Sequence record: AB897757.1 | Strand: one strand, 5' to 3' | Length of the DNA: 64,000 nucleotides | Origin: Klebsiella phage K64-1 | In this document: positions 41,016 to 56,003 of the stretch, in pieces | Layout of the letters: the number at the start of each line of letters is the position of its first letter | Numbering within the stretch: position 1 is the first letter of the stretch | Made by a program: the position numbers and the translations under genes | Notes under the pieces: generated by a model | What the model saw: the letters and a program-made list of their open reading frames with translations, nothing else | Databases searched by the model: none | Told to the model about the DNA's origin: nothing

Positions 41016-42419
41016 ATGAGCATTCTGTCCATTCTAAATGAAATTAAAAATACCAGCAGTACTAATGCAAAAAAAGATATCCTAAGAGAAAATAAAAATA
41101 ATATTTTACTACAAAAGGTAATCAAATACGCATTGGATCCTCTTAAAGTTTATGGATATAAAAAGCTTCCAGAACCAGTCTCAGACGGTTTCAAAATGAG
41201 CCTTAATGATGCACTGGACGCACTTGACCGTATTGCTAGTCGTGAATTTACTGGTCATACTGGCCGTGATTTTATTGCATCAGTCCTTGGTTCAGTTAAT
41301 GAAGATGATGCTGAAGTACTACGTAAAGTATTGGTTAAAAATCTAGATAATGGTATTCAAGCAAAAATGGCAAATGCTGTTTTTGGTAATATCGTTCTCG
41401 ATGAAAGTTATATGCGTTGTGATCTACTTACTGCAAAAACGGCAAAAAAAATTAATTTTAAAAAGTTTGGTTATGCAGTTAGTGAATTAAAACATGATGG
41501 TCAATATCTTTCGCATATTATCAAAGATGGAAAAGTCACGAGTACCAGTCGCAACTCCAAAATATATGACTTTTATGGAACTAAAGATGATGATATGCTA
41601 AAACTTGCTGAACTTATTCAAAGTTCCGACTCTCGTTTTAGTTCCGGTGTTGTTGTGATGGGTGAAGCATTAGTATACAGTACTGACATGATTAACCCAG
41701 AACCACGAACTACTGGTAATGGTATTATTCAGAAATTTGGTAAAAATGGTGGTACTATTGACGAAGCCCACAGGGTATTCTTTAAACTATGGGATGTTGT
41801 TCCATATGATGCGTTCATTGAAGGTGAGTGGGATGTTATTAGAAAGGAACGCCGAGAACTATTAGAAAATACATTAAATGAATTAAATTCTAACTTTGTT
41901 AAAATGACTGAGTACAGAATCGTTCATTCATTTAAAGAAGCATTTGATTATAATACAGAAGTGATGACACAAGGTTCCGAAGGTACTATCATCAAGTCTG
42001 AAGACAATATTTTCAAATCACATACATCACCAACACAACTTAAAGTCAAACTCAAGATGGAAGTTGATTTGAAAATTGTTGGATTTGAAAAAGGTGTAGG
42101 AAAACGTAAAGGAACACTTGGTTCTATTATTCTACAAAGTGATGATGGTCAATTAGTGACCAACTGTGGGACTGGTTTCACTGATAAAATGCTTGACGAA
42201 ATCTGGAAAAACAGAGATAATCTTCTTTACAAAATCGTAGCAGTTGAAGCAAATGATATAGTACTTGATAAGCGTACAAAAGTTCCAAGTTTATTCTTAC
42301 CAGTATTTGTGGAAATTCGTGAAGATAAGGATACTGCTGATACTTATAGTAGAATTCAAGAAATCAAAGAAAGTAGTATTGAAGTATTCAGTACTAAACT
42401 ATTAGAATCAATCAAATAA
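41016..42419 (+). CDS. ATP-dependent DNA ligase (T4 gp30-type)
   Basis: ORF of 467 aa. 'MSILSILNEIKNTSSTNAKKDILRENKNN' matches T4 'MILKILNEIASIGSTKQKQAILEKNKDN'. It also carries the adenylation motif 'ELKHDGQ', 'VVMGEALVY', 'EGTIIKS' and 'VKLKMEVDLKIVG', which line up with T4 'QLKADGA', 'IDGELVY', 'EGIILKN' and 'FKEVIDVDLKIVG'. Confidence 0.9.
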   Translation: MSILSILNEIKNTSSTNAKKDILRENKNNILLQKVIKYALDPLKVYGYKKLPEPVSDGFKMSLNDALDALDRIASREFTGHTGRDFIASVLGSVNEDDAEVLRKVLVKNLDNGIQAKMANAVFGNIVLDESYMRCDLLTAKTAKKINFKKFGYAVSELKHDGQYLSHIIKDGKVTSTSRNSKIYDFYGTKDDDMLKLAELIQSSDSRFSSGVVVMGEALVYSTDMINPEPRTTGNGIIQKFGKNGGTIDEAHRVFFKLWDVVPYDAFIEGEWDVIRKERRELLENTLNELNSNFVKMTEYRIVHSFKEAFDYNTEVMTQGSEGTIIKSEDNIFKSHTSPTQLKVKLKMEVDLKIVGFEKGVGKRKGTLGSIILQSDDGQLVTNCGTGFTDKMLDEIWKNRDNLLYKIVAVEANDIVLDKRTKVPSLFLPVFVEIREDKDTADTYSRIQEIKESSIEVFSTKLLESIK

Positions 42420-42427
42420 GGTATATT

Positions 42428-42721
42428 ATGAAAATTAAATCACTAATTGCAGGTTTTTCATTGGCATCTATTATTTTCATTACTGGTTGTACTGACGCAA
42501 CTCAATCACAAATCATGTCACTTGGTAATATTCATCAAGTTAAATGTTATAGTGGTGGAGTAGAAATCTTTAATGATTACAGTACTGGTAAAGTGAATGA
42601 TGAAAGTGGTAATGGTATTGGATATGAATCTTACTATACTAAACAATATGTAAACACATATGCAGATTGTATTGTACATACTATGCCAAATAATTTTGTG
42701 CCTCCTTCTAAATCAGAATAA
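42428..42721 (+). CDS. small lipoprotein
   Basis: ORF of 97 aa with signal peptide plus lipobox 'ASIIFITGC'. Confidence 0.5.
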   Translation: MKIKSLIAGFSLASIIFITGCTDATQSQIMSLGNIHQVKCYSGGVEIFNDYSTGKVNDESGNGIGYESYYTKQYVNTYADCIVHTMPNNFVPPSKSE

Positions 42722-42742
42722 GGAATATTAAAATAGAGCACT

Positions 42743-43156
42743 TTGTGCTCTCTAATTTTTATGTACATAAAAATGCTAAATTTTAGGAATAATGATTTTA
42801 TATTTACATCAACTGCATCACCACAGTCGTATTTGAATATGAATAATCTACCTTATGGTATTATGTACCATTGTGATGTATCTACAATTTTTGATTCCAA
42901 TAATCCTGAATTTCATTTCGTTGAAAAATCAAGATATAATAACAATGTTGGTATTATCAATGGTGGATTATATGAGTATGCATTTGATTACGATAAAAAT
43001 TATTATGTAGCAATACCAAATAGTAGTTTAGTGTATTCATATATGCTGACTGATATAATTGGATTACCATTCAGTACTAAATTATTGAAATTTGATTTGA
43101 GGGTGATTGAACCAGTACTATTATGGGATTTTATTTTTGCAATGAAATCGCTTTAA
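42743..43156 (+). CDS. hypothetical protein (alternative start ATG 42770)
   Basis: ORF of 137 aa. Confidence 0.4.
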   Translation: MCSLIFMYIKMLNFRNNDFIFTSTASPQSYLNMNNLPYGIMYHCDVSTIFDSNNPEFHFVEKSRYNNNVGIINGGLYEYAFDYDKNYYVAIPNSSLVYSYMLTDIIGLPFSTKLLKFDLRVIEPVLLWDFIFAMKSL

Positions 43157-43159
43157 TTC

Positions 43160-43188
43160 TTGACAAATGTAAAAATTTGTGATATAGT
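43160..43188 (+). promoter_or_regulatory. sigma70-like promoter TTGACA-N17-TGTGATATAGT
   Basis: TTGACA at 43160-43165 and TATAGT at 43183-43188, with a TG extended -10. Confidence 0.5.
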
Positions 43189-43194
43189 GATTGT

Positions 43195-43321
43195 AATGAT
43201 TGCAGTATTAAAATACGTATATGTAAAATGGAGAATATACTATGATTAATTTGACATAAGAAGAAACTGCTGTTATTATAAAAAAAATAATCAATAAGCT
43301 CACCATAAGGTGAGCATTTTT
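43195..43321 (+). ncRNA. candidate small RNA (about 125 nt) bounded by a promoter and an intrinsic terminator
   Basis: A consensus promoter at 43160-43188 and the terminator gctcacc-ataa-ggtgagc+attttt at 43298-43321 enclose only a trivial 5-codon ORF (MENIL). Confidence 0.35.
43298..43321 (+). terminator. rho-independent terminator
   Basis: Sequence gctcacc-ataa-ggtgagc followed by atttttg. Confidence 0.6.
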
Positions 43322-43370
43322 GTCTCAAAATACTTACAATTTAATAGATTAAAATATACAAAGGATTTGT

Positions 43371-44195
43371 ATGAAAGTAACAGGAAAGGGAAATCAGAAG
43401 GATGACCTATTTCATATAGATAAGTTTTTAAATACTGGTAAATTTTTACCAGGAACAATATTTTCTCGTTCAACTACTAGACAAAAGAACAATAAAGGTG
43501 TAATATCATATCCATATTGGAATTATAAATGCCCCAAATGTTCACATGATGAATTCGTTGAACATGGTTTATGTTCTGGTGTATTCGAAGGTGAATGTCA
43601 AAAACTAAAATTAGGAAAACGTAATTGTAGATGTGCTCCGACATATAGGTGGACACAAGAACAACGAGAATATCAAATACAAAAAGAAATCGATGAACGT
43701 GGTCTAGAAAATTATTTTATTGGATGGGTTGATCCTGAAGGATATAAAAATAATGGAAGTAAAATTATAATTGGATGTATAAATTCAGATGATGATGGTA
43801 CCCAACATAAAAGTTATACTATAGCAATAAATGATTTTCTCCATGGACATAAAGGTTGTGCTAAATGTGCCGGTCAAACACAAAAACATGCATATATAAA
43901 TGTTGTATATAATGAAAATAAACCAGTAGCTATAAAATTTGGAATTGCAAATGCACCACACATAAGGATTGAATTTCAAAATAGTAAAAATTTATATAAG
44001 ATGGTTCAAACGCACATTTACAAATTTTTCAGTACTGAACAATGTAAAGATGCTGAACGATATTGTAAATCAATTTATAAAAATGTTTTAACAAAAGAAC
44101 AACTATTTGATGGTTATACTGAAACCACACTATTGGAAAATATAGAAAATATTATTCAAATCTATGAAAAATATGGTGGAATCAGAACAAAATAA
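43371..44195 (+). CDS. Cys/His-rich (zinc-finger-like) protein of unknown function
   Basis: ORF of 274 aa with two similar modules, 'YKCPKCSHDEFVEHGLCSGVFEGECQ' and 'IGCINSDDDGTQHKS...HGHKGCAKCAG'. The RBS is aaggatttgtATG. Confidence 0.5.
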   Translation: MKVTGKGNQKDDLFHIDKFLNTGKFLPGTIFSRSTTRQKNNKGVISYPYWNYKCPKCSHDEFVEHGLCSGVFEGECQKLKLGKRNCRCAPTYRWTQEQREYQIQKEIDERGLENYFIGWVDPEGYKNNGSKIIIGCINSDDDGTQHKSYTIAINDFLHGHKGCAKCAGQTQKHAYINVVYNENKPVAIKFGIANAPHIRIEFQNSKNLYKMVQTHIYKFFSTEQCKDAERYCKSIYKNVLTKEQLFDGYTETTLLENIENIIQIYEKYGGIRTK

Positions 44196-44198
44196 TGA

Positions 44199-44226
44199 TT
44201 GACATTTTATTTGTTTATGTTACAAT
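44199..44226 (+). promoter_or_regulatory. sigma70-like promoter TTGACA-N16-TACAAT
   Basis: TTGACA at 44199-44204 and TACAAT at 44221-44226, upstream of the ClpP-like gene. Confidence 0.45.
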
Positions 44227-44264
44227 GTCTCTATAAATTGATTAATAAACACGAGGAAATACAA

Positions 44265-44966
44265 ATGCTAGATCAATTCACATTCGGTGGTTACTCATCC
44301 GGTACACAAATTACTAACTACAGTGTTCCAATTGTGGTAGAAAAAGAAAATGGGCAAGAGCGTTCTTATGACTTGTCTTCTCGTATGATGAAAGAACGTA
44401 TTATTTTCATCGATTCTGATTTCAATCCACAAATGGCACACATTCTAAAAATGCAACTACTTTGGCTTGACTCACAGGATGATGCACCAATTGTATTGTA
44501 TGTATCATCACCTGGTGGTTCTGTTCATGATGGTCTAGGTATTGCTGACGTTGCGAAATACTGTCGCTCTCCAATTCGTACTATTGTAATGGGATACGCC
44601 GCCAGTATGGGTGCGTTTACACAAAGTACAGTAGGTACTCCAGGTCATCGTTTTGCTGGTGAATCTGCTATGATTATGTGTCACCAAGTATCTTCAGGCA
44701 CTAAAGGTCTAATTACTGATCAGAAGATTGCTCTAAAGCATACTGAACGCCTTAATGAACTACTGATGAAACGCATTGCTGAAAGTGTTGGTGTTTCATA
44801 TGAACAACTACTTGAAGATGCTGACCGTGACTTGTGGCTAAATGCTGAAGAGTCACTAAATTATGGTACTAAAGGTTTCATTGATGGTATTATTCTTAGT
44901 GCTAAAAATGAAAAAGGTGAATTCCTAGTTCGTCGTCGCGGTGGCGTAGAAGAGTGGGTCAAATAA
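44265..44966 (+). CDS. ClpP-family serine protease (ATP-dependent Clp protease proteolytic subunit-like)
   Basis: Start chosen at the ATG 'MLDQFTFGG' with RBS gagga. 'GYAASMGAF' aligns to ClpP G(Q)AASMGA with the catalytic Ser, and 'MCHQ' to the catalytic His. The whole protein is colinear with ClpP. Confidence 0.8.
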   Translation: MLDQFTFGGYSSGTQITNYSVPIVVEKENGQERSYDLSSRMMKERIIFIDSDFNPQMAHILKMQLLWLDSQDDAPIVLYVSSPGGSVHDGLGIADVAKYCRSPIRTIVMGYAASMGAFTQSTVGTPGHRFAGESAMIMCHQVSSGTKGLITDQKIALKHTERLNELLMKRIAESVGVSYEQLLEDADRDLWLNAEESLNYGTKGFIDGIILSAKNEKGEFLVRRRGGVEEWVK

Positions 44967-55914: not shown

Positions 55915-55921
55915 TAATATT

Positions 55922-55950
55922 TTCGGTACTGAACAACACTCAGTACCGAA
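55922..55950 (+). terminator. terminator hairpin built from the GTACTG motif
   Basis: Sequence ttcggtactg-aacaacact-cagtaccgaa followed by atttaaaat. Confidence 0.5.
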
Positions 55951-55974
55951 ATTTAAAATAATTAAAAAAAACAT

Positions 55975-56003
55975 TTGACATATCAATCGTTGTATCCTAT
56001 AAT
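55975..56003 (+). promoter_or_regulatory. sigma70-like promoter TTGACA-N17-TATAAT
   Basis: TTGACA at 55975-55980 and TATAAT at 55998-56003. Confidence 0.55.

Follow-up and report, generated by a model that had tools for sequence, protein, structure and literature searches.

The DNA analysed here (64 kb, G+C content 29.5%; hereafter the window) is, as judged by sequence, from a Klebsiella jumbo phage of the RaK2/Muenster type, RaK2 itself belonging to the genus Alcyoneusvirus. Over the 1.9 kb surrounding the promoter-terminator unit that is our subject, the window is 99% identical to Muenster and OU509535, and 98.6% identical to vB_KleM_RaK2. All genes in this region lie on the + strand, in the order DNA ligase (41016-42419), a small gene for a putative lipoprotein of 97 aa (42428-42721), ORF487 (42761-43156), an endonuclease-like gene encoding 274 aa (43371-44195) and clpP (44265-44966), with the unit itself occupying the gap between ORF487 and the endonuclease-like gene, which follows it directly. 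A search for tRNA and tmRNA genes returned none.

Gene content also varies just upstream of this gap. The lipoprotein gene region (42428-42751) is shared by the window and Muenster, and KP13-7 has a counterpart of it; RaK2 and RCIP0023 lack it, with ORF487 coming immediately after the ligase gene, which marks another indel. A terminator-like hairpin lies at 42735-42751, 3' of the lipoprotein gene.

Two near-consensus promoters precede an intrinsic terminator

The first element of the unit, promoter P1 (43160-43188, + strand), consists of TTGACA (43160-43165), a 17-nt spacer with TG at 43180-81, and TATAGT (43183-43188). In our motif scan it matches the sigma-70 consensus at 11 of 12 positions and carries in addition the TG of an extended -10, with a predicted start at ~43195/43196. 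The initial annotation of this DNA had recognized P1 and combined it with the downstream terminator into a self-contained small RNA (sRNA) candidate. We additionally identify a second promoter missed in that annotation, P2 (43251-43279, + strand), with TTGACA at 43251-56, a 17-nt spacer and TGtTATTAT ending at 43279, such that its -10 (TATTAT) also has a TG extension and its quality equals that of P1. The predicted start of P2 (~43286/43287) falls within an A8 run, ~11 nt 5' of the terminator stem, and with P2 present besides P1, nested RNAs of ~127 nt and ~36 nt are predicted.

Promoters of this kind are not randomly distributed. Across the window, those matching the consensus at 11 or more of 12 positions number 14 on the + (coding) strand vs. 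2 on the - strand, and all 7 with a TG extended -10 are on the + strand, compared with 0.48 ± 0.67 in dinucleotide shuffles (~15-fold enrichment), in agreement with the earlier reading of P1 as a near-consensus promoter. Terminator-like sites are likewise enriched about four-fold within 38-48 kb (12 vs. 3.1 expected). Of the strong intergenic promoters in the window, P1 alone is followed by a terminator ahead of the next ORF, the others being located 30-106 nt 5' of a gene start. Near-consensus promoters also occur inside ORFs (7079, 17395, 18480, 25621, 61269 and 61388), which suggests that these may serve as internal early promoters. Our literature search found no transcriptome of a RaK2-like phage or of any Alcyoneusvirus.

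The intrinsic terminator (43298-43321, + strand) comprises a 7-bp stem with 5 G-C pairs, an AUAA loop and an AUUUUUG tail (GCTCACC-ATAA-GGTGAGC at 43298-43315, followed by ATTTTTG), and is located 50 nt 5' of the endonuclease start. Its hairpin folds at -12.9 kcal/mol (z = -4.8 vs. shuffles) and the same terminator is annotated in the Muenster record, confirming as stable the clean terminator that had been called here. In RaK2 the U tail is UUUU only, and the combination of this hairpin with a tail of 4-5 U suggests that termination may be incomplete.

As had also been noted, the endonuclease-like gene has its own ribosome-binding site, a Shine-Dalgarno sequence AAGGA at 43361-65 located 5 nt before the ATG at 43371. 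Both this sequence and the start codon are enclosed by a weak 8-bp hairpin (43355-43373, + strand) formed by a perfect inverted repeat, TATACAAA/TTTGTATG, which has a folding energy of -3.4 kcal/mol (z = -5.1 for the 25-mer) and is unstable in longer context.

The leader RNA carries no recognizable gene or structure

Between the predicted P1 start and the terminator lies an AT-rich leader of ~100 nt (43195-43297, + strand) with no significant structure and no detectable homolog. It contains no ORF of at least 30 aa on the + strand between P1 and the terminator, the longest having 5 codons. The peptide MENIL (43228-43245, + strand) had been listed as the only ORF in this interval; it is present, and nothing exceeds its length, but we find a second mini-ORF on the same strand, MINLT (43242-43259, 5 codons plus TAA), preceded by GGAG (43230-33) 8 nt before its ATG at 43242. 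No gene on the opposite strand overlaps the ~127-nt RNA.

Folding of the whole RNA gives z = -3.3, a signal that comes entirely from the terminator hairpin, as the leader body without it folds no better than shuffles (z = -1.45). The terminator is present in the minimum-energy and centroid structures alike, and we detected no antiterminator, i.e., no helix that competes with the terminator and no segment that pairs with either of its arms. Searches against Rfam gave 0 matches in the window at gathering threshold and nothing at permissive thresholds either, with the best sub-threshold score for the leader reaching 20.9 bits against a threshold of 60.

Conservation in related phages and prediction of mRNA targets had been proposed as checks on the sRNA candidate, and neither provided support. 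The leader occurs in only four genomes, namely the window, Muenster (100% identity), RaK2 (99.1%) and OU509535 (98.3%), and is absent from RCIP0023 and KP13-7. Distant blastn searches of phage records returned only short chance matches beyond these near-identical genomes, exact-pattern scans of IMG/VR returned RaK2 only, and protein-anchored scans of IMG/VR and metagenomes recovered relatives at 39% identity only, with no diverged copy of the leader; on the contig of the closest full-length endonuclease homolog, the upstream region is unrelated to it. The 64-kb window holds no second copy of the leader, the hairpin or the endonuclease. As for targets, among the 119 translation-initiation regions of the window the best pairing with the leader (-19.2 kcal/mol) did not exceed that of shuffled RNA (-21.6 ± 2.4 kcal/mol).

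The four leader-bearing genomes are 98-100% identical, which is too close to reveal purifying selection or covariation. In OU509535, identity is slightly lower in the leader than over the surrounding 1.9 kb (98.3% vs. 99.3%). The four differ by an A-to-G substitution within the P1 spacer, by AT inserted between GGAG and ATG, by A-run length (A7/A8/A9), and by T4 vs. T5 in the terminator tail. These differences alter the MENIL peptide, the frame relation to the endonuclease ORF and the Shine-Dalgarno spacing of MINLT, whose distance to its ATG grows from 8 nt to 10 nt in OU509535. The small ORFs of the leader are not conserved, and none looks selected.

The unit belongs to a mobile endonuclease cassette

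Comparison with two further close relatives reveals that most of the unit is part of an insertion. A segment of ~1017 bp (43177-44193), found in the window, Muenster, RaK2 and OU509535, is absent from RCIP0023 and KP13-7, which have ~34 bp in its place and in which ORF487 (98.7% and 94.3% identical to the window copy, respectively) is followed directly by clpP. This cassette contains the P1 -10, the leader, P2, the terminator and the 274-aa endonuclease-like gene. At the left junction, RCIP0023 and KP13-7 match the window through '...ttcttgacaaatg.aaaaat' (to 43176), inside the P1 spacer, such that P1 is split by the homology edge, with its -35 hexamer in sequence common to the insertion-free phages and its -10 in the inserted segment. 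At the right junction, homology is back at 'aatgattgac', a sequence made up of the stop codon of the endonuclease gene and the -35 of clpP's promoter. Among close relatives, the unit is gained or lost jointly with the endonuclease gene, and since 43177-44193 is missing from RCIP0023 and KP13-7, we interpret the unit as the 5' edge of a homing-endonuclease-like cassette beside clpP. A MAFFT alignment had hinted at another origin, with the unit as a vestigial copy of the promoter, 5' UTR and start of clpP; we rejected this candidate, as local-alignment scores were at chance (z ~0).

The protein encoded by the cassette combines a CapR-type zinc-finger DNA-binding domain (Pfam PF21817, E = 1e-13) with a C-terminal domain that matches phrog_681 'endonuclease' (E = 8e-45). 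The Pfam T5orf172 model (PF10544) gave no match to the C-terminal domain, and likeness to a T5orf172-containing protein is limited to the DNA-binding part. Homologs with CapR/DUF723 zinc fingers occur in hundreds of Vibrio, Escherichia, Klebsiella and other phages, and their presence varies even between near-identical phage genomes; CapR/T5orf172-type homing endonuclease genes are known to occupy boundaries of genetic exchange (PMC10448857). All homologs that we found are 390-456 aa long, with one or two extra N-terminal zinc-finger modules (CapR/DUF723), whereas the window protein begins where their last DNA-binding module starts and is ~120-180 aa shorter N-terminally. It may be a truncated, possibly domesticated, DNA-binding protein, and perhaps an inactive one.

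We also considered the leader as a decayed endonuclease N-terminus and found this unsupported. An HMM built from the N-terminal 150-220 residues of the homologs gave -0.7 bits on the leader translated in three frames (null median -0.1), and an anchored in-frame extension reached +1.3 bits, a score equalled by 18% of shuffles.

Elements resembling part of the unit recur upstream of homologous genes. Terminator-like hairpins lie just 5' of the Shine-Dalgarno sequence and start (within ~50 nt) of the endonuclease homologs of RCIP0023, JNE01 and phAPEC8, and a weak terminator-like hairpin lies 5' of the start of the KP13-7 homolog. Consensus promoters like P1 and P2 are found ahead of none of the homologous endonuclease cassettes examined.

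Two clpP alleles are associated with two different endonuclease genes

Downstream of the cassette, clpP has its own promoter (44199-44226, + strand; TTGACA, 16-nt spacer, TACAAT, with TG), which begins 4 nt past the endonuclease stop codon and has a counterpart in the insertion-free phages. The clpP gene next to the cassette shares only 73% identity with the RCIP0023 and KP13-7 allele, compared with 98-99% for the flanking genes. We thus distinguish allele A (window, RaK2 and Muenster), with endonuclease A upstream, from allele B (RCIP0023 and KP13-7), with a different endonuclease gene (311 aa; DUF723 zinc finger, phrog_559/phrog_9084) downstream of clpP; the locus spans 43371-44966 in the window, 4496-6264 in L004 and 4787-6487 in L003 (KP13-7). 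This arrangement fits the pattern expected of a homing locus, and sequence comparison gives the region around clpP the look of a homing battleground. Following the example of I-TevI autorepression, we compared the leader with both clpP alleles for operator-like similarity, finding no signal for allele B and one marginal match for allele A (p ~0.025, one of four tests).

Other exchange boundaries are visible in the same genomes. In KP13-7, a 456-aa endonuclease paralog (L003 2523-3893), in which the CapR-homology domain is matched in four stretches, sits between the ligase and lipoprotein genes; the adjoining ligase gene is only 72% identical to that of the window, vs. 98.6% in RCIP0023, marking another exchange boundary next to an endonuclease gene. 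At a second locus in the window (55921-56003), a perfect 12/12 promoter (55975-56003) comes after a 14-bp stem-loop (55921-55951), in an arrangement that resembles the promoter/stem-loop cassettes (PeSLs) of T4-type phages. RCIP0023 homology resumes at 55996, within this promoter; a full-length endonuclease paralog of 439 aa, missing from the window, is found immediately before this position in RCIP0023 and OU509535.

Discussion

The sequence elements of the unit, their non-random occurrence, the linkage of unit and cassette, and the recurrence of a terminator upstream of homologous endonuclease genes are established by these comparisons. As to what the unit does, we give an even chance to its being a cis-acting 5' control region of an inserted, free-standing homing-endonuclease-like cassette, one that throttles expression of the endonuclease. 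Host RNA polymerase would initiate early at the tandem promoters P1 and P2, both of which are presumed to be active; reliance on the host polymerase is documented for the distantly related jumbo phage PA5oct (PMC7318152), and we infer it for the present phage. Most transcripts would then halt at the constitutive terminator at 43321, making the ~127-nt and ~36-nt RNAs by-products, while a presumed read-through fraction would yield endonuclease mRNA at a low, throttled dosage. The weak hairpin over the Shine-Dalgarno sequence and AUG may cut translation further, and the promoter directly after the cassette would insulate downstream clpP. This reading is favored by the presence and absence of the cassette in relatives, the endonuclease family, the clpP allele pattern, the recurrent hairpins and the precedent of T4, together with the lack of an antiterminator fold and of any sign of selection on the RNA body.

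In T4, intrinsic terminators are found at the 5' ends of mobE and segF, and for mobE termination was measured at ~30%; an essential gene downstream has its own promoter in the interval that separates it from the endonuclease gene, and ribosome-binding-site hairpins are common (segB, mobE, I-TevI) (PMC2988022). The present locus shares with mobE and segF an intrinsic terminator at the 5' edge of an intergenic endonuclease insertion, and shares with T4 more generally a downstream gene (here clpP) whose promoter comes right after the endonuclease stop codon, a small hairpin over the Shine-Dalgarno sequence and AUG, and an insertion variably present in close relatives with a divergent allele of the neighboring gene. 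It differs in that the terminator lies upstream of the ORF rather than within it, in that two consensus early sigma-70 promoters precede the terminator, whereas T4 endonucleases are mostly middle or late, and in that the endonuclease is of the CapR/DUF723 zinc-finger family, not Seg or Mob. Similarly, the T5orf172/CapR homing endonucleases of ICP1 and others (PMC10448857, PMC8096241) share the CapR zinc-finger DNA-binding module (PF21817), a position at a sequence-exchange boundary and a number of DNA-binding repeats that varies among relatives, but here PF10544 misses the C-terminal domain and there are fewer N-terminal repeats than in all homologs. Against a throttle, two consensus promoters followed by a terminator would be wasteful, and the homologous cassettes examined do without such promoters. 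There may also be less to throttle, given that the N-terminally truncated endonuclease may be inactive or domesticated, and P1 may be an accidental fusion, given that its -35 pre-exists in insertion-free phages.

In another reading, which we consider rather unlikely, the succession of promoter, leader, promoter and terminator is non-functional debris of recombination at the cassette edge, transcribed but without purpose, and derived either from an emptied PeSL-like module whose small ORF was deleted or from the decayed 5' part of a longer endonuclease gene. The second source accords with the N-terminal shortfall of ~120-180 aa relative to all homologs, with the ATG at 43242, which has a Shine-Dalgarno sequence and in the window is in the endonuclease frame with three stop codons between, and with the family HMM reaching 15 residues upstream of Met1 in that frame; yet this remnant signal is not significant, as 18% of shuffles do as well and the HMM score of the leader is at the level of the null median. 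The first source draws on PeSLs, in which an early promoter is combined with a stem-loop and which, in T4-type phages, mediate the shuffling of modules and mark indel boundaries (PMC2839356, PMC4122927). Like these, the unit consists of near-perfect TTGACA-N17-TATAAT promoters and a terminator stem-loop, is intergenic and lies at an indel boundary of close relatives, and its breakpoint falls inside P1 just as the breakpoint at 55996 falls inside a consensus promoter, the same pattern as in PeSL shuffling. However, the stem-loop of a PeSL ends upstream transcription and its promoter drives the next gene, whereas here the order is reversed, with the promoters preceding the stem-loop and no gene between, and PeSLs are repeated, sequence-conserved motifs whereas the leader has no second copy in the window. 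The indels in A, T or AT runs that separate the four genomes, breaking the mini-ORFs and the frame relation, speak for the relic reading, but the resemblance to the promoter and 5' UTR of clpP does not exceed chance, and two 11/12 TG promoters and a clean terminator, all intact within 160 nt, are much to expect of debris.

Phages do carry short RNA genes: lambda OOP, of ~77 nt, runs from its own promoter to an intrinsic terminator, is antisense to cII and is conserved among lambdoid phages. The present unit resembles OOP in being a short, ORF-less promoter-to-terminator unit in a phage genome, but its RNA overlaps no opposite-strand gene, has no detectable target and is conserved only in near-identical genomes. 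The proposal of the initial annotation divides in two, with the anatomy supporting a short, discrete early transcript and the step from transcript to sRNA gene finding no support. An early trans-acting sRNA of ~127 nt with a nested 36-nt species, base-pairing with host or phage mRNAs and riding on the cassette, is in our view improbable, even though the unit has, as such a gene would, a strong promoter of its own, an intrinsic terminator and a non-coding stretch within 50-300 nt, the A-rich stretch before the hairpin and the U-tail may resemble Hfq-binding modules, the whole RNA folds better than shuffles (z = -3.3), and RNA-seq of PA5oct, a distantly related jumbo phage, showed ORF-less transcribed regions (PMC7318152). 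Against it, the fold signal is wholly that of the terminator, no Rfam family matches, searches of phage records, IMG/VR and metagenomes gave no copy beyond the four near-identical genomes, pairing with the start regions is no better than for shuffled RNA, the leader varies slightly more than its surroundings, and sister phages without the unit evidently manage without it. With the cassette absent from relatives and P2 abutting the terminator, cis-acting control or a recombination relic fits better than a stand-alone sRNA. We hold it to be a shade more improbable still that the ~127/~36-nt species represent a mobile sRNA gene that spreads between jumbo phages via the homing endonuclease and acts in trans, for example on a rival phage's clpP-linked endonuclease or on host transcripts, or as an Hfq sponge. 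Finally, attenuation, in which translation of MINLT or a ligand would decide between termination and read-through, is suggested by the GGAG 8 nt before the ATG at 43242, upstream of the terminator, but appears very unlikely, given that neither arm of the terminator has a segment to pair with and that the minimum-energy fold and the centroid fold each contain the terminator, that the MINLT stop lies 39 nt before the stem, that the spacing of its Shine-Dalgarno sequence drifts from 8 to 10 nt in OU509535, and that leader models, Trp_leader among them, stay far from threshold (16.4 vs. 41 bits).

These results have consequences for how such loci are read. If the throttle reading holds, then in phages rich in mobile endonucleases an ORF-less promoter-terminator pair alone is no evidence for an sRNA gene. 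For annotation, the clpP region of RaK2-like phages can be described as a hotspot of homing, where two endonuclease genes exclude each other and clpP comes in two alleles, which would be useful in engineering or comparing therapeutic-candidate Klebsiella phages. The gain in principle is small. If the unit does act as a throttle on the endonuclease, it would add, from beyond the T4 group, a case of a homing endonuclease gene that is free-standing and is both insulated and throttled within a phage genome.
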